Below, piece by piece: positions 60 to 20,462 of a stretch of 32,000 nucleotides of DNA. The notes below the pieces were generated by a model, which was not told the DNA's origin, did no database searches, and was given only the letters and a program-made list of their open reading frames with translations. The stretch comes from Zymomonas mobilis subsp. mobilis ATCC 10988 (GTDB lineage: Bacteria > Pseudomonadota > Alphaproteobacteria > Sphingomonadales > Sphingomonadaceae). The DNA lies in the NCBI RefSeq assembly GCF_000175255.2, contig NC_017262.1, forward strand, positions 300,001 through 332,000, written 5' to 3'. Positions within the stretch are counted from its first letter, which is position 1. Every line of letters starts with the position of its first letter. Both the position numbers and the translations under genes were made by a program.

Positions 60-2306
60 TCATGAAAAACGGTTATTTTTCGGGAAACCAACCGGCGGTA
101 AACGCCCGCTAGCACCGCGGGCAACGACCCAAGTTTTCATATCGGTTTCGGTTCTTATTCGACCAGATTCGCCGCCCATTGGCCAACTCAATCCCTCTTC
201 AAGGGTAAAAGTCGTAGCATCTGACAGATGTCCGCCCCGATAACGTTGTAATTGAACACCACTTCCCTTTGCCAATTCAGGAATCTGGGACAGTGGGAAA
301 GCCAATAATTTTCGATTTTCGCCGATAAGGGCAATATGGTCATGATCTTCTTCGATGACTTTTAAAACCATCAAATATTCGTCTTTTTTAACCCTAACAA
401 TTTGTTTTCCCTTACGAGTTTCTGCAACCAGATTGGTCATCTGGGTAATAAAACCACGACCGCTCGAAGAAACGACCAACAATTTTCCTTCGGGATTAAG
501 CGGTAATAAGGCCATTATCTTGGTGTCATTACTGATGTCCAACATTAACCGCACAGGTTCACCAAAACCGCGCCCACCGGGTAATCGGTCGGCAAGCAAA
601 GTATAAAATCGACCATCTTCTGTCGCGATCAACAAGCGATCGGTGGTATAAGCATGGCAGATGAAATCAGCTTCATCGCCTTCCTTAAAGCGCATGGCTT
701 CGGTCGATTTCAGATCAACATGCCCCTTTAGCCCCCGAATCCAGCCGCGTTTTGACAACACAACGGTCATGGGTTCCCGTTCGATCATCGCATCTAACGG
801 AATAGCTTTTGCAGGCGTTTGTTCTTCAATCAGCGTTTGGCGTGCGCCTAATTTACTTTTTAGGCTATAGCGCTTCCGCAAAGCGGACAAATCGGATTTC
901 AGCTTTTTACTTTGCAAAGCATCGCTTTCAATCAAAGCTTGAAGTCCAGCTCGTTCTTCTTTTAAGCTATCACGCTCTGCGGTAATTTCAGCTTCTTCTA
1001 GGCGCTTTAACGCTCTAAGCCGCATATTCAGAATCGCTTCGGCCTGACGATCACTTAACTTAAATTCAGCGATCATTACCGATTTGGGATCGTCTTCATT
1101 TCTGATGATTTCGATCACCCGATCAAGATTGAGATAAGCAGCTAGATAGCCTTCCAGTAATTCAACTCGGTCATCAATACGCTGTAAACGATGGCGACAA
1201 CGCCGCTGTAACATCGCAAATTGATGCGCCAACCACTCTTTCAAAACCGTATGGAGTGGTAAAACCGCAGGCGTATGATGGCTATCCAGCACATTCATAT
1301 TAAGCGAAATACGCGTTTCAAGACTGGTCAGATGGAATAAACCATCCATCAAAAGCTGGGGATCAACTGTTCTGCTTTTGGGTTCTAGGACAATCCTGAT
1401 ATTTTCATCAGATTCGTCGCGTATATCGCTAAGAATAGGCAGCTTTTTCTCGTTTATCAAAGCCGCTATTTCTTCAATTAAACGCGATTTCGGTATCTGC
1501 CACGGTATTTCATGAATAACAATAATCCAGCCGCCGCGACCGATATCTTCGACCTCATAACGCGCTCTAACTCTGAAAGATCCCCGTCCTGTCTCATAGG
1601 CGTGGCGGATAGTATCGACAGAATCAACGATCTGGCCGCCGGTCGGAAAATCTGGGCCTTTGACAAAACGCAATAATTCTTTGGTTTCGGCTTCGGGATG
1701 GTCAATTAAATGACAGATAGCATCTATCAATTCAGCGACATTATGAGGCGGAATAGAGGTCGCCATACCGACGGCAATACCGCTCGAACCATTAGCTAAA
1801 AGATTAGGGAAAAGACCGGAAAAAAATTCTGGCTCTTCTTCTTCGCTATTATAGGTAGGTCGAAAATCAACCGCGCCCTCTTCCATGCCTTCCATCAGGT
1901 CATAAGCGGCTGTGGTCAGGCGGGCTTCGGTATAACGCATAGCGGCGGCATTATCGCCGTCAATATTACCAAAATTACCCTGCCCATCGACCAAGGGATA
2001 ACGGAGGGCAAAATCTTGGGCAAGGCGCACCATCGCGTCATAAACAGATTGGTCGCCATGCGGATGGTATTTACCAATCACATCGCCAACAACGCGGGCG
2101 CATTTTTTATAAGCCGAGGCCGGATCAAGTTTTAACAGCCGCATCGCCCATAATAACCGCCGTTGCACTGGCTTTAACCCGTCTCTGATATCGGGCAAAG
2201 AACGGGAGGTTATGGTTGATAAAGCATAAGCGAGATAGCGTTCTGATAACGCCTTATCAAAGGCTGTTTCGGAAATATTTTCAATGTCGGAAGAAAGGCT
2301 GGTCAT
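60..2306 (-). CDS. parC: DNA topoisomerase IV subunit A
   Basis: 748-aa ORF. The N-terminus carries the GyrA/ParC signature ...[22 protein letters not shown].... A length of about 750 aa fits ParC better than the longer GyrA. Confidence 0.85.
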
Positions 2307-2573
2307 AAAAATGGAATAACAGAATCCTGTTTATAAATAAGGGTTTAAAATGGTAAAAATGCAGAATTTTTATATCGAGATCGCTGGGTCTTTTTTTGTT
2401 TCACGATGACTCCAGTACCGCATTTCGCTGGACTACGCCAAGGTTCGACACAGCAGGTTTATCAATCACTTAGGCGAGTTCAACATATGCCGGTGCTTTC
2501 CGAAACTTGACCCGGTTTCCCCTCGCGTGGCTCCCATGCGGCTCTTGGAAACCGGGCTTTCCGAGGAGTCATC

Positions 2574-2621
2574 ATGGCGAAGATCAAGCTCACCAAGTCC
2601 GCAGTCGATGCGGCACAACCA
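2574..2621 (+). pseudogene. Tyrosine integrase gene fragment (first 16 codons only)
   Basis: ATG preceded by GAGGAG. The peptide MAKIKLTKSAVDAAQP then leaves the integrase-like sequence and stops after 31 codons. Only 16 residues support the call. Confidence 0.35.
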
Positions 2622-2836
2622 AGAAACTGCGACTGGGGCCGTTGCCCAAGACCGAGAGCGTCAAGCTGACCTTCGCTTGCCCGGCCAGCTTGAAAGCCGA
2701 CCTCGACCGCTATGCCGCGCTGCACGCGCAGGCGTATGGCGAAGCAGTCGATGCCACAACGCTGATCCCGCACATGCTGGAAGCCTTCCTGGCGGGGGAT
2801 CGGGGGTTTAGGAAAGAGAAGACAAATAAAAACTAG
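2618..2836 (+). pseudogene. DUF2274-like ICE gene lacking its own start codon
   Basis: Frame of the 2507..2836 ORF. About 70 residues resemble DUF2274 (xKLRLGPLP...VKLT...L..YA......G......LI..ML..F...DR.F). No ATG lies at the expected N-terminus, because the sequence is joined to the integrase 5' fragment. Confidence 0.5.
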
Positions 2837-2958
2837 AGCGACTTGTTTTATCCTAAAAACTATCTTTGTGCGAAAGAATTTTAATTGAAACTGTTTTGTG
2901 CGATAATTTCCTTGTTTTTTTTGAAATATATCGTGACGTCTTTTAAGTGGAGGTCTTA

Positions 2959-3912
2959 ATGGGAGTTGTGCCCTCGAATATCCCTGAAAAATTAAAAGGA
3001 CGATATCCAGAGGTTGAGTGCGAGTCATCCAAGAGTTTTTTACTGGCTCATAGCATTAATGAGCTAAATAAAATGCCAATCCAAACATCTGAGGCGAGCA
3101 CCAGTTCATTTAAGGTCTTTGCACATGAGTTTAACTCAGTAATGTTAACTGCGCATCTTTTTGAAAATCTCTTGATGCTAGAGGATGTTCGGCATGAAAA
3201 TAATGGGCATGATTGGTTTCAAATAGAAATTCCGGAAGAGTATTTTAGATATCCCGCTGAGAATGATCCGAGAAACTATGGTGGCCAGGACACTCCAAGA
3301 ATGAGTGATGAGGACAGGAGAGCTATATCTGCAGTTGTTCGAAAATCTAAAGAAATGGCGAACTATGCCAATGATGAGAATTTTGCAAAAAATAATCTTC
3401 ACAAACTTGAGTTTATTTCTATATTTTCGTTCTTAGAGTCATTCATTGAGAATGTGCAGGTGGAGGTTTTGGGTGTTTCTCGTGAGGATGCATCAAAATC
3501 CGTAAGATACGCCTCACTGCCAAATGCTATGGAAGATACATTCGAAAAAATAGATCCCGATATAAATATTTTCATAAAAAATATTTTATATGACTTCTAT
3601 GATTTCATGAAATTCTCGTATCTACTTAGAAATCTTCATAGCCATAATCTAGGCAGGGTCACACAAAGATTTTTTGATATGTGTGAAAAAGAAGGGCTTT
3701 TGAAAGATGACTATGGAATAAAAGAAGATGGAGAAAAAATTTTCTTTGGAAAAATTGTTCGTTTCACAGGCTATAGCAGAACAATTGAATTAGATAAATA
3801 CATTAATTTATCTGATATTAGTTTTGTTTTCAGGAATTATGCACGGGAGTGTATTTTTATTGCAGAACAGTACATAGAAGCGAGAGTACAGGTTAATTCG
3901 TCTCAGCACTAG
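2959..3912 (+). CDS. Orphan hypothetical protein (317 aa) with a HEPN-like Rx4H motif; candidate toxin/abortive-infection RNase
   Basis: The ORF track starts at GTG 2947. The ATG at 2959 is preceded by GGAGG (2949-2953) with a 5-nt spacer, so 2959 is preferred. The gene is very AT-rich compared with its neighbours. There is no signal peptide or TM segment. The C-terminal half reads as helical, with FLESFIENV (about aa 162-170) and YLLRNLHSHNLGR (R228-H233 in ORF-track numbering, nt 3628-3645), which fits the R[N]xxxH HEPN active-site pattern. I recognise no family beyond that. Confidence 0.6.
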   Translation: MGVVPSNIPEKLKGRYPEVECESSKSFLLAHSINELNKMPIQTSEASTSSFKVFAHEFNSVMLTAHLFENLLMLEDVRHENNGHDWFQIEIPEEYFRYPAENDPRNYGGQDTPRMSDEDRRAISAVVRKSKEMANYANDENFAKNNLHKLEFISIFSFLESFIENVQVEVLGVSREDASKSVRYASLPNAMEDTFEKIDPDINIFIKNILYDFYDFMKFSYLLRNLHSHNLGRVTQRFFDMCEKEGLLKDDYGIKEDGEKIFFGKIVRFTGYSRTIELDKYINLSDISFVFRNYARECIFIAEQYIEARVQVNSSQH

Positions 3913-4534
3913 CGAGAGGCTGGAGTTAATCCACAGTGGTGGATAAGTATTCTGCAATCGACCAAGAATGAGAGCACCTCCCAGCCTCGTGCGGTGCCTA
4001 CCTTTGATATGAATGGTCGCGAGGGAATGAGTCGTGTTGGCACAATGCTGCTACATGGTTATCACCATCACGACCTAGCTTGCTCTTCCAAGGCTCTTAT
4101 ATGACTCCCAGCCCACAACTTCGCATCCCCTGCAAGCGACATGAAACAGAGCTAACCTATTGCCGCGTATATGATTTCAAGCTACACGTGATTTGTACGA
4201 AAGGCTTGACACCGGCCCTTTTTTGAGACCTCATTCTAGAAAGGGAAAAGCTACCCTCGATATTCAACATAAAAGTGATTTTACATTATCTCTTCTGATG
4301 CCTCAATGACATCAGGCAGAAAGTCAACTGCGTCAGAAAATCCAATGTTATTCCAAGCCACCCACAGACGGCGTCATTCTGGCGGCAAGATAAAGATCAA
4401 TTCTTTGGAAAAGTTTAGCCCCATTATAACGGGCTAAGAGATCAAAAAGCGCAGTTATAGGCGCGCCTAATAGAAGGATCAGCCATGCCACGGATAGAAT
4501 AAGATATATTCCATCCGCAGCAGGCTTTTATTTT

Positions 4535-5314
4535 TTATAAACCGCGATTTTTGCGATGGGATTCCAGATCCAGAACTTCGGTATCTGGTTCAACTGGCAA
4601 TAATCCTAAGCGGCGAGCAATTTCCTGATAGGCTTCGACTTCGCCACCCAAATCCTGACGGAAACGGTCTTTATCCAATTTTTCATTGGTAACCATATCC
4701 CACAAACGGCAACCGTCAGGACTAATTTCATCAGCCAGCAAGACGCGGCTATAGTCATTTTCCCAAACGCGACCGAATTCGAGTTTGAAATCGACCAAAC
4801 GAATATTGATGGCCGCAAAAAGACCACTCATGAAGTCATTCACACGGATCGCCATGTCAGCGATATCATGCATTTCTTCCTGCGTAGCCCAACCAAAACA
4901 GGCAATATGCTCATCTGCAACCATCGGGTCATTGAGGGCGTCATCTTTATAATAATATTCGATGATTGTCCGAGGCAGCGGGGTGCCTTCTTCAATGCCT
5001 AACCGCTTGCTCAAAGAACCGGCGGCAACATTTCTGATTACCACTTCGATCGGGATGATTTCGACCTGTTTGACCAATTGTTCGCGCATATTGAGGCGAC
5101 GAATGAAATGGGTCGGAATACCGATTCCTGCTAACAGGGTAAAAATATGCTCGGAAACCCGATTATTGATAACGCCCTTACCGCTAATCATGCCTTTTTT
5201 CTGGGCATTAAAAGCAGTCGCATCATCCTTGAAATACTGGATAATGGTGCCGGGTTCTGGGCCTTCATAAAGAATTTTGGCTTTGCCTTCGTAAATTTGG
5301 CGACGACGGGACAT
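4535..5314 (-). CDS. purC: Phosphoribosylaminoimidazole-succinocarboxamide (SAICAR) synthase
   Basis: 259-aa ORF. The N-terminus [23 protein letters not shown]... and overall sequence are typical of alphaproteobacterial PurC. Confidence 0.9.
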
Positions 5315-8419: not shown

Positions 8420-9460
8420 CTAGCGGGCAGCGTTATAGACGGCTTTCCCGTTAACTTGAATGTTCGATCCCCATTGCTGGCGGATGAACGTCTTCACTTC
8501 TTTCGGTAATGGCGCATAGTCAAGAGATAAAGCATCCTGATCGCCATTCTGATATCCCCAATCAAAGAATTTTAGGATTTCAGCCGTGGTTTCAGGTTTG
8601 CTGGGGGTGCGATGTAAAAGAATATAGGTCGTTGAAACGATTGGCCAGCTTTCTGCGCCCTTCTGATCCAGAAGGGAAATATTATTCCCAGCTGCATGCG
8701 TCCAATCCGCAGAAGCCGAGGCGGCTTTGAAACTTTCAGTGGAAGGATGCGGGAAGCGACCATCACGATTGGCAATCAAAGCATAAGGCACCGTGCTTTG
8801 ACGGGTATAGGCATATTCGACATAGCCGATTGAACCGATTGTCTGTTTAACAAAGGCGGCTACCCCATCATTGCCTTTACCACCAAGACCAATCGGCCAT
8901 TGCACGGCATCGCTGGCACCGACACGGGAGGCCCATTCAGGACTTTTCAGCGACAGATAAGACGTAAACTGGAAGGACGTGCCGGAACCATCCGCGCGAT
9001 GCACCACCGTAATCGGTACTGGCGGTAATTTTAACCACGGGTTGATGGACGCGATCCGCGGGTCATTCCAACGGGTAATTTTACCAAGATAAATATCGGC
9101 AAGAATACTGCCTGTTAAATGCAAGCGACCTGACCGCAAACCCGGCAAGTTAATGATAGGCACAATGCCTCCCATCACGGTCGGGAACTGATAAAGACCA
9201 TCTTTTGAAAGCTCTTCGGTTTTCAAAGGCTTGTCAGACGCTCCGAAATCAACGGTAGAGGCTTTAATTTGCTTAATACCGCCACCGGAACCAATAGGCT
9301 GATAATTGATAACAGCACCCGTCTGGTTGCGATAGGAATTGGCCCATTTTCCATAAACAGGTGCTGGGAATGTCGCGCCTGCACCGGAAATAGTCGTTGC
9401 ATAGGCCGTGCTGCCAAAAAGGCTGACGAAACCAACAAGGGCAGCTATTTTCTTAACCAT
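8420..9460 (-). CDS. pstS: Phosphate-binding periplasmic protein PstS
   Basis: PstS-like sequence (ISGAGATFPAPVY..W). The preferred start is the ATG at 9460, giving the signal peptide MVKKIAALVGFVSLFGSTAYA. The upstream extension to 9535 is not signal-peptide-like. Confidence 0.88.
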   Translation of the reverse strand: MVKKIAALVGFVSLFGSTAYATTISGAGATFPAPVYGKWANSYRNQTGAVINYQPIGSGGGIKQIKASTVDFGASDKPLKTEELSKDGLYQFPTVMGGIVPIINLPGLRSGRLHLTGSILADIYLGKITRWNDPRIASINPWLKLPPVPITVVHRADGSGTSFQFTSYLSLKSPEWASRVGASDAVQWPIGLGGKGNDGVAAFVKQTIGSIGYVEYAYTRQSTVPYALIANRDGRFPHPSTESFKAASASADWTHAAGNNISLLDQKGAESWPIVSTTYILLHRTPSKPETTAEILKFFDWGYQNGDQDALSLDYAPLPKEVKTFIRQQWGSNIQVNGKAVYNAAR

Positions 9461-9611
9461 AACAGCGCTTCTTTCTTTTAATGCCGAATAGTAAGGTGTT
9501 TTATGCCTTCGAGCTGTAATCATGGCATATTGCACAAAAATGACAGAAATCTGTTTTTTATAAATTTTTTAAAAAACATCTCCGCCTTTTTACGCTGGAA
9601 ACGAAGACATT

Positions 9612-9697
9612 CTGTCATATTTCTATCATAAAACTGCCTCCAAATTGTCATCAAATTGATAGAAAAACTGTCATAAGTGCCATTTATGAACTGTCCT
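9612..9697 (+). promoter_or_regulatory. Array of phased Pho-box half-sites (PhoB operator) upstream of the porin gene
   Basis: The half-sites are CTGTCAT(9612) attt CTATCAT aaaa CTGCCTC caaa TTGTCAT caaa TTGATAG aaaaa CTGTCAT(9668) aagt GCCATTT atgaa CTGTCCT. These are 7-nt repeats at 11-12 bp phase, matching the E. coli-type consensus CTGTCAT-N4-CTGTCAT. A possible -10 TATGAA lies at 9684-9689. Confidence 0.7.
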
Positions 9698-9725: not shown

Positions 9726-11312
9726 ATGCAGCCTTTTTTTCAATCATTAAAAAGAAATAGCGCGCTCATACCCGCTTTAAGCATTTTAGCGTCTATTCCT
9801 GTGTTAGCGTCTCCTGCTCATGCCGTGATACCTTCTAAGAAGTTGAAATCAGGTCGTTTCTCGACACAGGCTGAAATCGCAAGACAAGCTGAAGAAATCC
9901 GGCAGCTTCATGCTGAAATTAAAGCTTTGGCGATGAAGCTGGATACCCAGAATAATGCCAAGACAACAGAATCAACCGCATTAGCACAGGCGCAAATACC
10001 GGCAGGCAGCTCATCCGCTGCCACAACGACGGCGCCTGACCAAAAAGCAGTCCCATCAGATGCCCAGTTAAAATTGGCAGCGGCGATTGATTCTATTCCA
10101 GATCAAGTTAATAAAGCCGTCGATAAACAGGTCGATAAGTCGCTTTCTCAACGACTGAATAAAAATCTAAAATTTGGCGACTGGTTCGCGAAAACCCATA
10201 TCGGGATGAGAATGTATTCCAATGCCAGCTGGGCGACCTATCGTTCTGATGGAAAGGCTGCGGCATGGATGCCGGCCCGAAATTCAGCGGCAACCTCGAT
10301 CAATACGCCCGCTGGTAATATTGGCTATGATACTAAAAATCGGCCAGTCGGAGATTCAATCGGCTTTGACCTGAAACGCTTTTATTTGATGGTTGACCAT
10401 AAATTTAATGACAACTGGGCTGCCCGTTTAACAACAGATGCCTCTTATATTTCTGGGGTGGGCGAAGCCATTTACATTAAACATGCTTATTTAGAAGGGA
10501 AGCAATCTGACGCGTTCTCGGTGCGTTTCGGTGCCGCTGACCTCCCATGGTTACCTTTTGTCGAAAATCTCTATGGGTATCGCTGGGTTGAAAATACCAC
10601 TTCAGAAAGAGCCAATTTCGCCACTTCGGCAGATTGGGGTATTTTTGCCATGGGTAAATTATGGAATGGCTTGGTCGAATATAATATGGCGGTTGTGGAC
10701 GGCTCCGGTTATCGTTCGCCTTTCCGTTCAAAAAATCCTGATTTTGAAGGTCGTATTAACGTCAATTATGCCGGATTTACCGTCGGCGGTGGGGCGCATA
10801 TCGGGCATCAAGGTCAAGAACGTGGCCAGATGGGCGAATATGTTTATAATGCCGCACAACGTTATAATGCGATTATCGCTTATGTGCATGGCCGTTTCCG
10901 TTTCGGTGCAGAATATTTCTATGCCAAGGATTTCACCAGCTCAGCCTTGGATTGTAATTTGAATGCCTGTGCATCCTCCAGTGATCTTTACAAAAAAGAT
11001 GCCGGTCAAGGCGCTGCTGGATGGGGGTCAGTTCGTATTTTTGATAAAGTCTCGCTATTCGGGCGCTATGACTGGGCGCAACCTTATATGAAAAGCGATT
11101 CTCATTTCAAAGATCACTATTTCAATGCGGGTATTGATTGGCAGCCCATTAACAATATTGATGTTGGCCTTGTCTATAAACAGGAAAATGTTACCAATCA
11201 CGGTTACACGGGCAGCGTGCCTATCTACATCAACACAACCAATGGCGCGCTGGGTGGTATGAGAAGTGCCTCTTACAAAGAATTAGGTATATTTACGAAT
11301 TTCAACTTCTAA
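9726..11312 (+). CDS. Outer-membrane porin, probably Pho-regulated phosphate-selective (OprO/OprP-like)
   Basis: The ATG at 9726 is preceded by AGGAG (9715-9719). Signal peptide ...VLASPAHA, an N-terminal coiled-coil-like segment, alternating beta-strand-like sequence, and a C-terminal ...TNFNF aromatic terminus. Divergent from pstS and directly behind the Pho-box array. The family assignment is contextual. Confidence 0.55.
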   Translation: MQPFFQSLKRNSALIPALSILASIPVLASPAHAVIPSKKLKSGRFSTQAEIARQAEEIRQLHAEIKALAMKLDTQNNAKTTESTALAQAQIPAGSSSAATTTAPDQKAVPSDAQLKLAAAIDSIPDQVNKAVDKQVDKSLSQRLNKNLKFGDWFAKTHIGMRMYSNASWATYRSDGKAAAWMPARNSAATSINTPAGNIGYDTKNRPVGDSIGFDLKRFYLMVDHKFNDNWAARLTTDASYISGVGEAIYIKHAYLEGKQSDAFSVRFGAADLPWLPFVENLYGYRWVENTTSERANFATSADWGIFAMGKLWNGLVEYNMAVVDGSGYRSPFRSKNPDFEGRINVNYAGFTVGGGAHIGHQGQERGQMGEYVYNAAQRYNAIIAYVHGRFRFGAEYFYAKDFTSSALDCNLNACASSSDLYKKDAGQGAAGWGSVRIFDKVSLFGRYDWAQPYMKSDSHFKDHYFNAGIDWQPINNIDVGLVYKQENVTNHGYTGSVPIYINTTNGALGGMRSASYKELGIFTNFNF

Positions 11313-14660: not shown

Positions 14661-17600
14661 TTAGAAATGGACTCCAACGGACATTTTAAAGGAACGTCCC
14701 ATCAGGCTTTCATAATAGCGTGTCACACTGATAGATCCCGGATATTTCGGAAGCGCATCCGTGATGTTGTTAACTATCAGGCTAGCATCAATATGGTCCG
14801 TAATTCTGTATCCTACCGTCATATTGAAATAGGCAAAATCAGGCCGTCTATTATTTTCATATGTTTTATCCGAAACCTGAACCGCATAACGCGCCTTACC
14901 ATACCAGATGGTCTGCCACTGGAAGGATAATCTATCACGGGTATAATTCATATTGATCGTGAAATTATCCTGCGGCTGCGTTGTGGTGCCGAACATGTCA
15001 TAAGTGCTTGTTAAGATTTTCTGCTCATTTTTGACATAATGAATGTAATTACCCGTTAACTCCACCGTTCCGGCTGAATCAGGCAACCCTAAACGACGCA
15101 GGGGAAGAACATAATTAATTTTGCCTTGAACAGCCTGCATATGTTGACTGGCAACATTGTAATATCCTTCGGCAAAATCAGTGACCTGATGCGTGGAAGG
15201 ATCACGGGTAAAGGCACCGCAATAACTACTGTTAGGATAAGATGAAGAGTCATAGCAGGCACTCATCAAATCACCGAGGCCAAGAGAGGTAATCTCGTTA
15301 TTGATTTTGACATCAATATAGGCGCCGTTGATGGTCAATCCCGGAACAAAATGGGGCGTAAAATCAACCGCTGCTGTAAAGCTGTGCGATGTCTCATTTT
15401 TCAAATGCGTGTTACCGCCACTCGTCCCCGGCATCGTCTGGTTAACGATCTGAGACTGGAAGTTGGTCGGGATACCTGCTGCTGCACAATTCGCCCGTCT
15501 CGTAGCCGGATTAGGGCCTGAATCCAAAAATTCATATGAGCAAGGATCATTTGCCGAACCATAAACAGTAGATTTTGTCGCGAATAATTCGGTCACCGAA
15601 GGATTCCGCACTGATTGGGCATAGTTGCCACTAAATCCGAAATCGCGCGTTGGCCACCATGTGCCGCCGAACATATAAGTCCAATAGCTTCCGGTCATAC
15701 TGTTATTGATATACCGACCATTGGCAGTCACCGAAAGATTATAGGCACCCGCCATATGCATATTGGGTGAAATCAGCGGGATATCCAATTCCCCAAAGGC
15801 TTCATGGGTATGATAAGCCCCGCTAACGGCTGTAATCGGTGCGGAATTACCATAGCGCCGCCTTGTTCCATCCGATAACAGTTCACCTTCGGCAAAACTT
15901 CCCGGATTGAAATTATAACTTTCACGGCGATGTTCGTAACCAATATCCCAGCGGATATCGCCTGCTGGAAGTTTGGCAATAGTGCTGTTGATTTCAGCCT
16001 GAATATCGCGCTGGGAATTGCGGTTTTTGCTATGCACATCAGAAATGACATAGTCTTTCGCAGCTTGCGACATCTGGTTAAATCCAAATGGATTCAACGG
16101 CGAACAGGTCGAACTTCTGGTGGCTGCTGTTGAATTCACATATCCGGCGGCACAAACAATATTGCCGGCGGCATCGGTTGTTGCATTCAAAGCATTGATG
16201 AAATTTTGGGTGTTGATCGAAGGCTGCCAAGTATTATTGAAATATTGGCTATATTCCCCCGCTATTTTCCAGTTAAAATGCCGTCCAAAAGCATTAAAAT
16301 CACCATCAAGACCACCTTGTAACCGATACATTTGGTCTTTGGTTCTGAACATACCCGCATCCAGATCCTGATTAAGCCTTTCCATATAAAAAGTATCAGT
16401 GGGCTGACCGGCGGCCTTCAAGGCATTGACAATAGTTGTGCGTTCTGCCGCTGTCAGGAAGGGATTATTCGTGCTTAAAGTTAACGGGCCATTGACATCG
16501 GTATAACCCGTATAGGAATCTCCGTTTAAATAGCTATCCATGGTCATGGGGCCTTGGAAGCCCGTATCCTGCCACGTGCCTTGCCCTACCTGACTTTTGG
16601 CTTCACCGCGCTGATACCATCCTTGCCATGTGGCATGGATATGGTCGCTCAAATCATAATGGCCAAGGGTTGTCAGATTGAGGGTCTTAGATGGAGTATA
16701 TATCTGGCTGTAATCACTAAGCGCGATACCATTACCCCCTAATCCATAATAATTATCACGAATTAAGGTATCAGCCGTCAATGGGACGAGGGATTTACCA
16801 TCCTGACTGAACATCGCGGCTTGATTGCCATTCCCTGACGGTACACCCAGATCAATCTGATTGAGATAGGTCGGATAAGATCCCATAGTGCCGGCCGTAA
16901 GCGGCATACCTGTCACCGAACTTTGGATATAACGCCGTCCCTTGGTAAAGACATAAGAATAAGGTGACGTGCTGCCTACAGGCCGATGGGAATAAGAGGT
17001 CTTTTCCGAACCAAATACATTATTTCTGTCTTTGGCAAGGACACCGCCACTATGACGATATTCAACGTCAAAGACGATACCGCCCCGCCCTTCATTGAAT
17101 TCAGTGCCCCCTTTAAAATAGATTTTTTCCTGAGGCGCTTTTAATCTTTGGGTAAAGCCGCCTTGCGCATTAAAATCGATGCCCTTGAAGTGATCATCCA
17201 ATTGATAATTGACCACACCGGCAACCGCATCGGCACCATAGCTCGCGCCCGCACCACCGTATTTGGTATCAATCTTTTTAATCAAAGAAGTCGGAATGGT
17301 GCCAACATCTACCTGCGAACCGGAACCGGCACCAAAAATCGAGGCAGTCGCCCCGCCAACCATTCTCATACCATTAATCAATGTCAGGGTGCGCTGGTCA
17401 CCCAAATTGAAAAGAGAAACGAAAGATTGTCCTGCGCCATAGCTACTTTGTGACCCGATAGGGCTATTATTGGGGACTGAAAAAGCCGGATTTTCACGCA
17501 ACAAAGCCAATCCTATATCGCTATAGCCGCGCGTTTTAATCTGTTCTTCGCCCAAGGTTGAACCCGCCATCACATTGGAAAGGCGAGATTTCGACAAACG

Positions 17601-17837
17601 CGTTCCCGTAACCGTGATGGTATTGGTATCACTTGTCGAATTATGGTCTTTATCCTTGGTTTTATCTGTTTTTTTATCTGTAGATGACGCCTTGGGTGCA
17701 TCCGATAGATTGATGACGGATGGTATATTATCCGACAAAACAGGGCTTTGAACCTGTTCATTGTCCGCCTGAGCCGCCAAAGCTGGTGCAACAAAAGAAG
17801 AAATGCTGGCTAACAAGCCGAGACGGAATAAAGGCAC
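14661..17837 (-). CDS. TonB-dependent outer-membrane receptor (large, 1058 aa)
   Basis: Signal peptide ...APALAAQA, plug-domain start ...NTITVTGTRL, long beta-barrel-like sequence, and a C-terminal ...FKMSVGVHF terminal Phe. The start is a GTG, and an upstream in-frame ATG is separated from it by a TGA (see findings). Confidence 0.85.
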   Translation of the reverse strand: MPLFRLGLLASISSFVAPALAAQADNEQVQSPVLSDNIPSVINLSDAPKASSTDKKTDKTKDKDHNSTSDTNTITVTGTRLSKSRLSNVMAGSTLGEEQIKTRGYSDIGLALLRENPAFSVPNNSPIGSQSSYGAGQSFVSLFNLGDQRTLTLINGMRMVGGATASIFGAGSGSQVDVGTIPTSLIKKIDTKYGGAGASYGADAVAGVVNYQLDDHFKGIDFNAQGGFTQRLKAPQEKIYFKGGTEFNEGRGGIVFDVEYRHSGGVLAKDRNNVFGSEKTSYSHRPVGSTSPYSYVFTKGRRYIQSSVTGMPLTAGTMGSYPTYLNQIDLGVPSGNGNQAAMFSQDGKSLVPLTADTLIRDNYYGLGGNGIALSDYSQIYTPSKTLNLTTLGHYDLSDHIHATWQGWYQRGEAKSQVGQGTWQDTGFQGPMTMDSYLNGDSYTGYTDVNGPLTLSTNNPFLTAAERTTIVNALKAAGQPTDTFYMERLNQDLDAGMFRTKDQMYRLQGGLDGDFNAFGRHFNWKIAGEYSQYFNNTWQPSINTQNFINALNATTDAAGNIVCAAGYVNSTAATRSSTCSPLNPFGFNQMSQAAKDYVISDVHSKNRNSQRDIQAEINSTIAKLPAGDIRWDIGYEHRRESYNFNPGSFAEGELLSDGTRRRYGNSAPITAVSGAYHTHEAFGELDIPLISPNMHMAGAYNLSVTANGRYINNSMTGSYWTYMFGGTWWPTRDFGFSGNYAQSVRNPSVTELFATKSTVYGSANDPCSYEFLDSGPNPATRRANCAAAGIPTNFQSQIVNQTMPGTSGGNTHLKNETSHSFTAAVDFTPHFVPGLTINGAYIDVKINNEITSLGLGDLMSACYDSSSYPNSSYCGAFTRDPSTHQVTDFAEGYYNVASQHMQAVQGKINYVLPLRRLGLPDSAGTVELTGNYIHYVKNEQKILTSTYDMFGTTTQPQDNFTINMNYTRDRLSFQWQTIWYGKARYAVQVSDKTYENNRRPDFAYFNMTVGYRITDHIDASLIVNNITDALPKYPGSISVTRYYESLMGRSFKMSVGVHF

Positions 17838-18416
17838 GGGTCATCTTGAAGAAAGCCCATAACGATTTTTCATAGATTGTACCCCCCCATTGGTAAAATC
17901 GTGAAATTTTCAATTATGCTCGCTTCATTTTTGTAACATGATAATATTTATTAGCAATAGTATTGTTGTTAAATTTCTCAAAATAATTTATTTATAGTGA
18001 TATAAAATAACTTTATAAGTTTAATTCATTTTAAAACGAATAAAGTTAACATTTAAATTACTAATTTGTATTTTTTAATTAAAATAAATTAGCTTTTTAA
18101 GAACAAAAATATCATTAAAAATACCTTTTAAGTAAATTTATTCCAAAATGCTGAATGAAAATATTTTATTAAAATAAAAATTTTATTTTTATAATAGCTT
18201 TATTCTATAAAACTTTGATGCAAAAGCCCTCTAAAATGGATCGAAAATTGAGCGTTTTTGTAAATTTTTTTTTCAAAAAACGACGATCATCCAAGGATTT
18301 TTATCATTAAAAAATTTCATTTTATGATTTAAAAAATCTATAACCCCGACAAATCAACCGTTTGAACGGATTCGAACCCGCCTCCAAGCAGAATTTTCAC
18401 CCCTTATGCTAAAATA

Positions 18417-18432
18417 ATACTGTATCTAGTGG
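18417..18432. promoter_or_regulatory. Candidate NrdR box upstream of the class I RNR gene
   Basis: ATACTGTATCTAGTGG matches 12/16 positions of the remembered NrdR consensus acaCwAtATaTwGtgt. A weaker second site (10/16) lies at 18477-18492, at non-canonical spacing. Confidence 0.3.
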
Positions 18433-18620
18433 GCTGATGAAAATATCATATACCAGATAATGATTTTACTACGCCTCCAAAATGTATATGGATGCGGCAA
18501 ATAGAATGGCTCTTTCGCATTTTTCGAAAGGAATCATCCCTTCGATTAGAGGATAAGACCCTTCGGAAAATCGCTTTTCATTTTAACGGTTAGAATTTTC
18601 GGGCATTAGGAAATAAAGCT

Positions 18621-20462
18621 ATGACACTTTCTTCGGAAAGCAAAAAAGACGAGACGAAAAAAGCCAATCAAAGACGCTTTACTATCATCACTGACCCAAG
18701 TCGGGACGCTTTGCTGACGGCCTTTGGTAAAGCGACGTTAGATGATCGTTATCTTTTACCCGGAGAAAGCTATCAGGATTTATTCGCGCGGGTAGCTGAT
18801 GCCTATGCTGATGACGAAGCGCATGCCCAACGTCTCTATGATTATATTTCTCGTTTGTGGTTCATGCCCGCAACGCCAGTTTTATCAAATGGCGGTACCA
18901 AGCGTGGTCTGCCGATTTCTTGCTATCTCAATGCCGTGCCAGATAGTTTGCAGGGCATTGTCGATATCTGGAATGAAAATGTCTGGTTGGCCTCCCGTGG
19001 CGGCGGTATCGGTACTTATTGGGGCAATGTGCGCGGCATTGGCGAACCTGTTGGCCTAAATGGTAAAACCAGCGGCATTATTCCTTTTGTTCGTGTGATG
19101 GATTCATTAACGCTCGCGATCAGCCAAGGCTCTTTGAGGCGTGGTTCAGCCGCCTGCTATATTGATATTTCACATCCTGAAATTGAAGAATTTCTTGAAA
19201 TAAGAAAACCATCAGGTGACTTTAACCGTAAGGCCTTGAATCTCCATCACGGCGTTTTAGTAACAGATGCCTTTATGGAAGCCGTACGTGATGGCCGATC
19301 TTTTGATCTGGTTTCGCCTCGTGATGGCACCAAACGTGGCGAAGTCGATGCCCGTAGCCTATTCCAAAAGCTGGTTGAAACCCGTCTTCAGACCGGTGAA
19401 CCTTATATTGTGTTCATAGATCACGTGAACAACAATATGCCCCGCCATCATCAGGCCTTGGGCTTAAAGGTCTCTAGCTCCAATCTCTGTTCTGAAATCA
19501 CCCTCCCTACCGGACAAGACCATCTCGGCAATCAGAGAACCGCTGTTTGCTGCTTGTCTTCGCTTAATCTAGTGACATGGGATCAATGGCATGACAACAA
19601 ACGCTTTATTGAGGATGTTATGCGTTTCCTTGATAACGTTTTGCAGAGCTATATCGACAATGCGCCGGATGAAATGTCTCACGCCCGATATGCCGCCATG
19701 CGGGAAAGATCGGTTGGCTTGGGCGTTATGGGCTTCCACAGCTTTTTACAGGCACGCAAAATACCCTTTGAGGGGGCTTTAGCCAAAAGTTGGAATCTCA
19801 AAATTTTCCGCCATATCAACACAAAGGCGAATGAAGCCTCAATGATGCTCGCGAAAGAACGGGGGGCTTGCCCTGATGCCGCTGACATGGGCGTTATGGA
19901 GCGTTTCTCTTGCAAAATGGCGATTGCGCCTACCGCCTCTATCAGCATCATCGCTGGCGGTGCTTCGGCCTGTATCGAGCCTATTCCAGCCAATATCTAT
20001 ACGCATAAGACGCTGTCTGGCAGTTTCGTCGTCAAAAATCCCTATTTGCAAAAACTCTTGCAAGACAAATCCAAGGATTCCGATACCGTCTGGAATTCCA
20101 TTCTCGAAAAGAACGGCTCTGTCCAACATCTTGATTGTTTGACAGCCGAAGAAAAAGACACTTTCAAAACCAGCTTTGAAATTGACCAGCGTTGGTTATT
20201 GGAAATGGCGGCGGATCGGACGCCTTATATCGATCAGGCACAATCCCTGAATCTGTTTATTCCGGCAGATGTTGAAAAATGGGACTTGCTCATGCTGCAT
20301 TTCCGCGCATGGGAATTGGGCATCAAGTCGCTTTATTATCTCCGCTCGAAATCCTTACAACGCGCAGGCTTTGCAGGCGGTGTCGAGGCCGATAACACTC
20401 CTCAGATGAGACAGATTGAAGTCGAAATGCGAAATTACGATGAATGTCTCGCCTGCCAGTAG
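18621..20462 (+). CDS. nrdA: Ribonucleoside-diphosphate reductase large (alpha) subunit, class I-like, no ATP-cone
   Basis: 613 aa. Active-site SSNLCSEITLP (the NLCxEI motif), FMPATPVLSNGGT, and a C-terminal redox tail ...DECLACQ (CxxC, as in eukaryotic-type R1). There is no VxKRDG-type ATP-cone at the N-terminus. Confidence 0.8.
   Translation: MTLSSESKKDETKKANQRRFTIITDPSRDALLTAFGKATLDDRYLLPGESYQDLFARVADAYADDEAHAQRLYDYISRLWFMPATPVLSNGGTKRGLPISCYLNAVPDSLQGIVDIWNENVWLASRGGGIGTYWGNVRGIGEPVGLNGKTSGIIPFVRVMDSLTLAISQGSLRRGSAACYIDISHPEIEEFLEIRKPSGDFNRKALNLHHGVLVTDAFMEAVRDGRSFDLVSPRDGTKRGEVDARSLFQKLVETRLQTGEPYIVFIDHVNNNMPRHHQALGLKVSSSNLCSEITLPTGQDHLGNQRTAVCCLSSLNLVTWDQWHDNKRFIEDVMRFLDNVLQSYIDNAPDEMSHARYAAMRERSVGLGVMGFHSFLQARKIPFEGALAKSWNLKIFRHINTKANEASMMLAKERGACPDAADMGVMERFSCKMAIAPTASISIIAGGASACIEPIPANIYTHKTLSGSFVVKNPYLQKLLQDKSKDSDTVWNSILEKNGSVQHLDCLTAEEKDTFKTSFEIDQRWLLEMAADRTPYIDQAQSLNLFIPADVEKWDLLMLHFRAWELGIKSLYYLRSKSLQRAGFAGGVEADNTPQMRQIEVEMRNYDECLACQ

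Follow-up and report, generated by a model that had tools for sequence, protein, structure and literature searches.

A solitary AT-rich gene in a Tn4371-like ICE remnant of Zymomonas mobilis: a single-protein, HEPN-type candidate for defence or toxicity

What might a solitary gene of foreign base composition, lodged in the debris of a mobile element, do for its bacterial host? The question is raised by a 32,000-nucleotide stretch of Zymomonas mobilis subsp. mobilis ATCC 10988 (contig NC_017262.1, positions 300,001 to 332,000; 'the window' below, with positions counted from its first letter). Its plus strand carries an open reading frame (ORF) whose 317-residue product is identical to WP_014500416.1 / AEH62115.1 of the same strain, a protein annotated as 'hypothetical protein'. 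From the letters of the window alone, the original prediction saw here a candidate single-gene defence or toxin system, on account of a short motif, RNLHSH, that recalls the catalytic Rx4-6H of HEPN ribonucleases (RNases); it allowed that the resemblance could be chance. Comparison with homologues shows that the motif is no accident: its arginine, asparagine and second histidine are invariant in the most divergent alignment of the family. The gene occurs without a partner, and its relatives occupy integron cassettes and other mobile settings. The family is uncharacterised but of a known sort, and is best filed as a single-protein, HEPN-type candidate defence or toxin gene. On balance, and with modest confidence, the gene is likely to encode a stand-alone HEPN RNase of the abortive-infection type, whose conserved N-terminal domain would be regulatory.

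The gene itself is genuine and under purifying selection. The ratio of non-synonymous to synonymous substitution rates (dN/dS), taken for pairs with unsaturated synonymous sites, is 0.037 for two Vibrio homologues and 0.093 for Aeromonas versus Photobacterium, and the gene is therefore regarded as real and constrained. In the list of ORFs the frame runs from GTG 2947 to 3912, but ATG 2959 is the likely start codon, because a GGAGG Shine–Dalgarno sequence precedes it and the initiator methionine of the homologues aligns there. This start gives the protein its 317 residues, and the motif residues previously numbered R228 and H233, counted from the GTG, become R224 and H229. Other parts of the earlier description stand: the ORF is AT-rich (GC content 0.357, versus 0.452 in the flanks at 0.5–8 kb), it has its own Shine–Dalgarno sequence, and the 317-residue protein contains no transmembrane-like segment (maximum Kyte–Doolittle mean over 19 residues, 1.17). 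The protein is acidic, with a pI of 5.2.

A word-indexed homologue search returned 31 clusters. Two alignments are used here, namely one of 31 sequences with 37–70% identity (the closer set) and a divergent one of 25 sequences that includes the most distant members, down to 20% identity. The family is tiny and isolated, since only 29 proteins, all of them from this same family, emerged when 1.84 billion representatives were scanned in full with an HMMER profile. Its hosts are sporadic and comprise Zymomonas, Azospirillum, Burkholderia, Klebsiella michiganensis, Pseudomonas sichuanensis, Aeromonas, Vibrio, Photobacterium, Methylococcaceae and Aliarcobacter; a scan of species-representative genomes found three loci with a family member.

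Conservation within this family is sharply focused. Only eight of the 317 columns of the divergent alignment are invariant (M1, N70, E160, R224, N225, H229, G232 and R292). Three of these fall inside the hexapeptide RNLHSH, while E160 lies in the long preceding helix and R292 in the last helix. In the closer set, RNLH(S/T)H(N/K)LG is practically fixed, R224 and H229 (the Rx4H pair) are kept in 30 of 31 members, and E164 is conserved in at least 90%. H227 is conserved at about 96% and forms an HxH pair with H229. Both stretches quoted in the original prediction, the amphipathic helix FISIFSFLESFIENV (residues 152–166) and the motif region YLLRNLHSHNLGR (residues 221–233, codons 3619–3657), are present in the protein. 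In one sequence alone, RNLHSH is weak evidence; the window's other 22 long ORFs, 8,593 residues in all, contain the pattern R[NDH]x3-5H two times, or about 0.07 times per 317 residues. What makes the motif non-random is that R224, N225 and H229 are invariant across 25 sequences in which so few other columns are. To judge from the alignments, the pattern of invariance is that expected of an active site, and E160, R224, N225, H229 and R292 are its candidate residues, a set ready for mutagenesis. The second, weaker Rx5H that had been pointed out, VRHENNGH, is indeed there, at residues 77–84, but its R78 and H84 vary without constraint; for want of conservation it is rejected as a catalytic motif.

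Is the domain that carries the motif a HEPN domain? By definition, HEPN domains are four-helix up-down bundles, frequently with inserts between helices 2 and 3. Their Rx4-6H motif closes helix 3 and runs into the loop to helix 4, the arginine is followed by a polar N, D or H, and there is often a conserved acidic residue upstream, in helix 2 (PMC3710099). AlphaFold2 models the whole protein with a pLDDT of 85.9 and a pTM of 0.83, and the C-terminal domain alone with a pLDDT of 92.8. A long helix (139–171) carries E160 and is followed by three shorter ones (175–184, 187–198 and 200–209). Helix 213–229 then closes exactly in RNLHSH and gives way to a loop, and a last long helix (284–315) carries R292. 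The predicted secondary structure appears to fit the published definition. The Rx4H motif is conserved, an asparagine (N225) directly follows the arginine, and an acidic residue, E160, stands upstream, albeit in the first long helix rather than in helix 2 as in PMC3710099, the equivalence of the two being assumed. Between the motif and the last helix there is a 55-residue insert with a helix and a β-hairpin (236–267); in the divergent members P0054 and P0058 the motif is kept and this hairpin insert is absent.

Profile searches lean the same way. HEPN_RiboL-PSP (PF18735) is the only recurrent Pfam match, found in eight of 31 members at 12–20 bits (best E 6.8e-4). These matches are collinear from helix 1 through the motif; in P0006, for instance, residues 120–258 correspond to profile positions 5–143 of 191. 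The 317-residue protein itself has no PF18735 match even at E ≤ 10, and by Pfam's criterion it is not a member of that family. The single PADLOC match among 25 members is to a HEPN model, RTasHEPN, below threshold at E 0.025, and one member bears the UniRef label 'Cthe-2314-like HEPN domain-containing protein', which the Pfam scan does not reproduce. Searches with Foldseek gave no match at E ≤ 0.001, be it against the PDB with the full or the domain model or against BFVD. The top PDB match of the full-length model is a Cas13-type riboendonuclease (8h4u), and Csx1 (6qzt) is among the first six; neither is significant (E 0.42–4.7, TM-score at most 0.16). The best match in BFVD is A0A8S5LJP3, an uncharacterised 215-residue protein of Myoviridae sp. 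ct6F13 (E 0.06, probability 1.0, target TM-score 0.61). Scans of the 317-residue protein against Pfam, PADLOC, NCBIfam and PHROGs gave nothing usable, searches of PDB sequences with profiles of the full family or of the C-terminal domain gave chance-level matches only (a NatC subunit, CysRS, DDB2), and a profile of the C-terminal domain, run at E ≤ 10, brought in no family from outside.

Several points weigh against a HEPN RNase encoded by a defence gene. There is no significant profile or structural similarity to any established HEPN family, and no HEPN model reaches its curated threshold, the best PF18735 score of 20 bits comparing with a gathering cut-off of 28.4. No link from this family to another one emerged from the profile searches or from the exhaustive HMMER search, and the 317-residue protein has no defence match in PADLOC (PADLOC-DB 2.0: 0 matches) or PHROGs. 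The 55-residue insert between the motif and the last helix is atypical for HEPN. As for genomic context, the Aeromonas, Azospirillum and Burkholderia loci lie among housekeeping genes and not in defence islands, and a tblastn search of 72,556 plasmids and 50,697 phage genomes came back without a homologue. The HEPN fold foreseen in the original prediction seems compatible with the modelled topology but has found no significant Foldseek match, and its profile matches lie below their thresholds. All the HEPN hints are consistent in direction, yet each falls short of its threshold; membership of the HEPN superfamily is probable rather than established.

The same data bear on a different explanation, in which the protein is not a catalytic HEPN RNase at all. 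The E…RNxHxH…R constellation would instead bind a ligand, a metal or nucleic acid through its H-x-H pair and a winged-helix-like insert, and the protein would be a regulator or some other effector, still borne on mobile elements. The lack of a significant fold or profile match is in keeping with this, as are the near-invariance of H227, which creates the HxH pair, and the record of HEPN domains that have lost catalysis (PMC3710099). Moreover, the best Foldseek matches of the C-terminal domain model, themselves not significant, are PadR/LmrR winged-helix regulators, aligned on the insert and last helix (the helix, β-hairpin and long helix that follow the motif). Yet these matches are weak, with TM-scores of 0.13–0.26 and probabilities of at most 0.25, and P0054 and P0058 retain the motif without the hairpin insert. 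The exact R-[N]-x3-H spacing, the invariant asparagine, the invariant glutamate upstream and the predicted position at the end of a helix together make up a specific HEPN signature (PMC3710099), and the only recurrent profile matches are to HEPN models. A non-catalytic role is accordingly judged unlikely.

Half of the protein had escaped attention in the original prediction. Residues 1–134 hold most of the positions that are invariant in the closer set, gathered in HLFENLLMLED, FQIEIPxEYFRYPA and KDENxxKxNLHKLEF; N70, which is invariant throughout the family, belongs to the first of these. The region has no match in Pfam, NCBIfam, PADLOC or PHROGs. A duplicated HEPN pair, in which the N-terminal half would resemble the C-terminal half, was considered and rejected (hhalign probability 0.2%). 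The N-terminal half is interpreted as serving regulation or sensing, or else as helping to form the active site.

The settings in which the family occurs complete the picture. Family genes have a GC content of 0.23–0.39 in every host, including hosts at 0.64–0.70, and in the latter the AT-rich tract is just 1.05–1.25 kb long, the length of one gene. In Vibrio parahaemolyticus (locus L019), the family member belongs to a chromosomal integron array with 35 attC-type repeats of 124–130 nt in 21 kb, and its ORF fills the cassette between the attC sites at 9837–9961 and 10938–11062, so that there is no room for a partner protein. Copies bounded by attC are also found in Vibrio sp. VNB-15, in Photobacterium damselae and in a metagenome-assembled genome from ENA; a single ORF between attC sites, the definition of an integron cassette applied here, was found in L019, L004, L016, L020 and L022. 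The copy in Aeromonas hydrophila lies amid housekeeping genes, at a non-integron site, but retains GTTATGT as its 5' cassette boundary and, of a Vibrio-type attC, the 3' half; it resembles a cassette that has entered a secondary site. Other cassettes of the L019 array encode a Shedu SduA_C domain (4233–5156), a nucleotidyltransferase-like protein (16683–17240) and Ribonuc_L-PSP (17390–17761); the family member there sits among defence- or toxin-type cassettes.

A conserved partner gene was sought and rejected, no ORF being shared among 12 loci within 2.5 kb on either side. This extends the earlier remark that no antitoxin-like ORF is adjacent from the window to 11 other loci. Flanking DNA is not conserved from one lineage to another either; there are, for example, no inverted repeats or att sites in common. 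The whole unit consists of one gene.

These observations bear on the possibility that the protein is the toxin of an addiction module, with a cis-encoded small RNA or its own N-terminal domain as the antidote, and that it stabilises its carrier element instead of defending against phages. HEPN toxins are common in toxin–antitoxin systems, and toxin–antitoxin cassettes stabilise chromosomal integrons (10.1101/2024.07.02.601686). The integrative and conjugative element (ICE) in the window, described below, has lost its whole core yet kept this gene and both ends, as selection against loss would yield, and an inhibitor within the molecule itself could be provided by the conserved N-terminal half. 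Set against this, the 12 loci share no MNT nucleotidyltransferase or other partner, a cassette leaves only about 40 nt 5' of the ORF, and no flanking DNA, hence no RNA gene, is conserved between lineages. No antisense promoter or terminator signal rises above shuffle expectation, and a toxin without a labile antidote is not addictive. An addiction module is therefore held to be an unlikely account of the family.

Beyond the integrons, the family reaches other mobile elements. In an IMG/VR contig (L027), a member is found in an AT-rich slot, with a D5-type primase on one side and an HK97 capsid block on the other; Pfam matches on the contig are D5 primase, Phage_capsid, Peptidase_S78, Phage_portal, Phage_HCP and HNH. 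Related elements in 1,016 E. coli genomes have the primase and packaging genes in common, lack tail genes and end in TerS/TerL beside fis, and their slot holds different hypothetical genes. The phage-inducible chromosomal islands that form capsids (cfPICIs) are defined by primase, capsid, prohead protease, portal, head–tail connector, HNH and terminase genes and by the lack of tail and lysis genes (PMC10085698). By its gene content, the L027 element appears to be a cfPICI-like phage satellite, with the family gene in a variable slot. Across E. coli strains the interval between primase and capsid is a variable accessory hotspot beside fis/dusB (L028, 5157–7013; L029, 5151–6364). L027 also contains a second AT-rich ORF (391–930, 179 residues, GC 0.34) with no Pfam match and the sequence LNKIRNKFSHD, which includes R-N-x3-H; it may be a second HEPN-like accessory gene.

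Another setting is beside an integrase and a prophage. In Klebsiella michiganensis (L023–L025, 9249–12700), the site is fixed and flanked by fragments of IclR_C (66–96 residues) and MR_MLE_N (156 residues), as well as by two unannotated ORFs, one of 81 residues upstream and one of 213 residues downstream on the opposite strand; the arrangement suggests an older insertion that disrupted local genes. In Aliarcobacter butzleri (L007–L009), a 64-residue DprA fragment (DNA_processg_A, 9430–9624) lies directly upstream of the family member, and a variable region and an IS110 transposase lie downstream, which suggests insertion into or beside dprA. Taken together, the integron arrays near a Shedu cassette, the cfPICI-like slot, the integrase and prophage neighbours and the ICE remnant bear out the association with mobile and defence loci that had been anticipated. 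The mobility of the family is unusually well documented, and the original interpretation is, overall, supported in part.

Could the gene then serve conflicts among mobile elements themselves? It would in that case, for example, arm satellites or ICEs against phages and plasmids, whether helpers or competitors, or act as an anti-defence factor, and not be a means of host-beneficial abortive infection. The member in the accessory slot of the cfPICI-like satellite, the copy carried as ICE cargo in the window and the Myoviridae protein that is the best BFVD fold match can all be cited for it. The tblastn search, however, found no sequence homologue among the phage and plasmid records, and most copies, as cassettes or islets of the chromosome, persist with no functional carrier element; the idea also overlaps mechanistically with that of an abortive-infection RNase. 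It is considered quite improbable.

How did the gene come to its place in Z. mobilis? The original prediction had it directly behind an ICE scar. The scar is real, with a DUF2274 match at E 2.5e-24 and both ends recognised by DNA homology, but the gene lies inside the remnant and not behind it. The remnant, 1.8 kb long (2392–4226), is inserted between parC (60–2306, minus strand) and purC (4535–5314, minus strand), and the gene stands between the DUF2274 gene and the right end. The left end is 97% identical to pTTS12 of Pseudomonas putida S12 and 85–89% identical to many conjugative plasmids, over the starts of genes for a 'site-specific integrase'. Everything between about codon 12 of the integrase and DUF2274 has been deleted. 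Positions 2613–2814 share 87% DNA identity with L010, the reference ICE copy, in which the DUF2274 gene follows trbF-G-I; the last seven or so codons of the DUF2274 remnant derive from the AT-rich cargo. This cargo, made up of a 144-bp leader, the ORF and then 165 bp that include an imperfect hairpin, stands in place of 187 bp of L010 (3203–3389). The gene is therefore cargo of the right end of the ICE that has survived the decay of the element.

The termini point to the Tn4371 family. TTTTTTGT is listed as a direct repeat of the Tn4371 family (PMC2789088), and the left copy together with TTTTTTGA at the right matches the 8-bp TTTTTYRT-type repeats of Tn4371-family ICEs (PMC2789088). The right end of the window copy closes in ...CCTTTTTTGA, as in the reference, and that of L010 likewise closes in ...CTTTTTTGA. 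An integrase end, DUF2274 as the close of a trb module and 8-bp direct repeats, with the core deleted, mark the structure as a remnant of the Tn4371 family. An exact 11-bp repeat, GCAGTCGATGC, occurs at 2601–2611, ending at the integrase/DUF2274 deletion junction (about 2612), and at 2744–2754 inside DUF2274; it may be connected with the deletion of the ICE core, or be a chance repeat.

Att-like long direct repeats around the gene were looked for in the window and rejected, only short chance matches being found. A pattern scan revealed no attC next to this copy, save for one chance-level match inside the ORF, although the same scanner missed one true Vibrio site. The hairpin that straddles the stop codon shows no attC signature in that scan and lacks R''/R' core sites in the proper order; it may be a terminator or a decayed recombination site. 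Upstream, the pair of TTTGTGCGA repeats in the AT-rich leader is a possible promoter or operator, and a promoter scan found no sigma-70-like match in the leader. Low GC content recurs elsewhere in the window, where the intergenic tract 17900–18330, between the divergent long ORFs 14661–17837 (minus) and 18621–20462 (plus), is extremely AT-rich (GC 0.244 in 18001–18500, far below that of the 317-residue gene). The coordinates of the features are collected in Table 1.

Table 1. Positions in the window of the gene, its parts and the surrounding ICE remnant.
Feature	Position	Strand	Basis
Gene for 317-residue protein WP_014500416.1	2959..3912	+	ORF list, identity to database protein, dN/dS
N-terminal conserved region, residues 1–134	2959..3360	+	Alignments
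C-terminal HEPN-like domain, residues 135–317	3361..3909	+	AlphaFold2 models; weak collinear HEPN_RiboL-PSP matches
Codon of Glu160 in the FLESFIEN helix; invariant, candidate acidic residue of the active site	3436..3438	+	Alignments
Codons R224-N225-L226-H227-S228-H229, Rx4H motif	3628..3645	+	Sequence; R, N and H229 invariant
Shine–Dalgarno GGAGG	2948..2952	+	6 nt 5' of ATG 2959, sequence
Two copies of 9-bp direct repeat TTTGTGCGA	2865–2873 and 2895–2903 (spacing 30 bp)	+	Read from sequence, AT-rich leader of gene
Imperfect long hairpin straddling stop codon	3906..3997	+	DNA fold −19.5 kcal/mol, z −3.6
TTTTTTGT, left 8-bp direct repeat (att-type)	2392..2399	+	Sequence; ICE left-end homology starts at about 2383; PMC2789088
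ICE left end and first ~12 codons of tyrosine integrase (ATG 2576, MAKIKLTKSAVDA...), truncated by deletion	2383..2612	+	DNA homology
Remnant of the DUF2274 gene, which closes the ICE trb transfer module; fused to integrase stub	2613..2836	+	Pfam E 2.5e-24
AT-rich cargo segment, 1,263 bp	2815..4077	+	BLAST break points, sequence, GC profile
ICE right end, closing in TTTTTTGA (4219–4226), right direct-repeat copy	4078..4226	+	74% identity to L010 3390–3538

How would a stand-alone HEPN RNase of this kind work? The protein would be two-part, all-α and cytoplasmic, with a divergent HEPN-type RNase domain at its C-terminus and a regulatory or sensory module specific to the family at its N-terminus. 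By analogy with HEPN RNases (PMC3710099), homodimerisation would juxtapose two R224-N225-x3-H229 motifs which, aided by E160 and R292, would form a metal-independent RNase site. The N-terminal region would hold the enzyme inactive until a cue arrives, most plausibly phage infection, and the ensuing cleavage of RNA would arrest growth in the manner of abortive infection. The gene would spread as an AT-rich unit of about 1.1 kb, whether as a cassette of Vibrionaceae integrons, as cargo of a satellite, as a solitary islet or as cargo of an ICE. A more ambitious form of this proposal is offered tentatively, as a possibility that is open to considerable doubt. Here the family would be an undescribed one-protein immune system, in which the N-terminal domain, with its FENLL helix and FQIEIPxEYFRYP loop, directly senses a phage cue and unlocks a minimal, divergent HEPN RNase. 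Sensor and effector would fit within a cassette limit of about 1.1 kb, and this compactness would allow the unit to pass, in alpha-, beta-, gamma- and epsilon-proteobacteria, between integrons, phage satellites, ICEs and chromosomal sites that are otherwise bare.

Comparison with known systems helps to place the family. With the Abi-type stand-alone HEPN proteins (AbiD/F, AbiJ, AbiU2, AbiV; PF18735; Cthe_2314-like) it shares an Rx4H motif with asparagine, placed by the models at the end of a helix, an upstream glutamate in a long amphipathic helix, a predicted all-α make-up and a single-gene unit on mobile DNA. To PF18735 in particular the profile similarity is weak but collinear, every family member scoring at most 20 bits and thus remaining under the gathering value. 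Unlike Abi-type proteins, the family gives no PADLOC match to Abi models, has a conserved 134-residue N-terminal region without known relatives and contains the 55-residue helix/β-hairpin insert. HEPN–MNT toxin–antitoxin systems of types II/VII also place an Rx4H toxin domain on mobile DNA, but the present protein is about twice the size of such toxins and is accompanied by no MNT nucleotidyltransferase or other conserved neighbour in the 12 loci. Cas13, Csx1 and Csm6 share the Rx4-6H catalytic logic, and 8h4u and 6qzt are among the top, non-significant Foldseek matches; the family differs from them in having neither a CRISPR context nor a CARF domain, and in carrying just one HEPN motif in each chain. 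A HEPN-motif protein is known as an integron cassette in gammaproteobacteria (PDB 3jrt; PMC3710099), but 3jrt is absent among the Foldseek PDB matches listed for both models and gives no sequence-profile match.

The closest functional precedents, by analogy, are Esos and Taranis. These are single-gene HEPN cassettes of the chromosomal integron of V. cholerae N16961 that act against phages via growth arrest or death, and they have homologues outside Vibrio on other mobile elements (bioRxiv 10.1101/2024.07.02.601686). By description only, the likeness extends to one ORF per Vibrio integron cassette, a HEPN-like domain as the sole recognisable feature and non-Vibrio homologues on mobile elements. 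The present family is probably a different one, as no V. cholerae protein is found among the named members that were looked up.

If the proposed function is correct, a compact polypeptide that combines a sensor with an RNase would join the anti-phage catalogue, from a family that is absent from Pfam, PADLOC and PHROGs. It would also provide a clear case of a small gene that passes from one kind of carrier to another, here integron cassettes, an ICE and a phage satellite that forms capsids. Such movement would favour a view put forward recently, in which chromosomal integrons act as a store of streamlined defence genes for later reuse by other mobile elements. Z. mobilis is used in industry to make ethanol, and there a strain-specific gene for abortive infection or a toxin could bear on both robustness against phages and genetic tractability.

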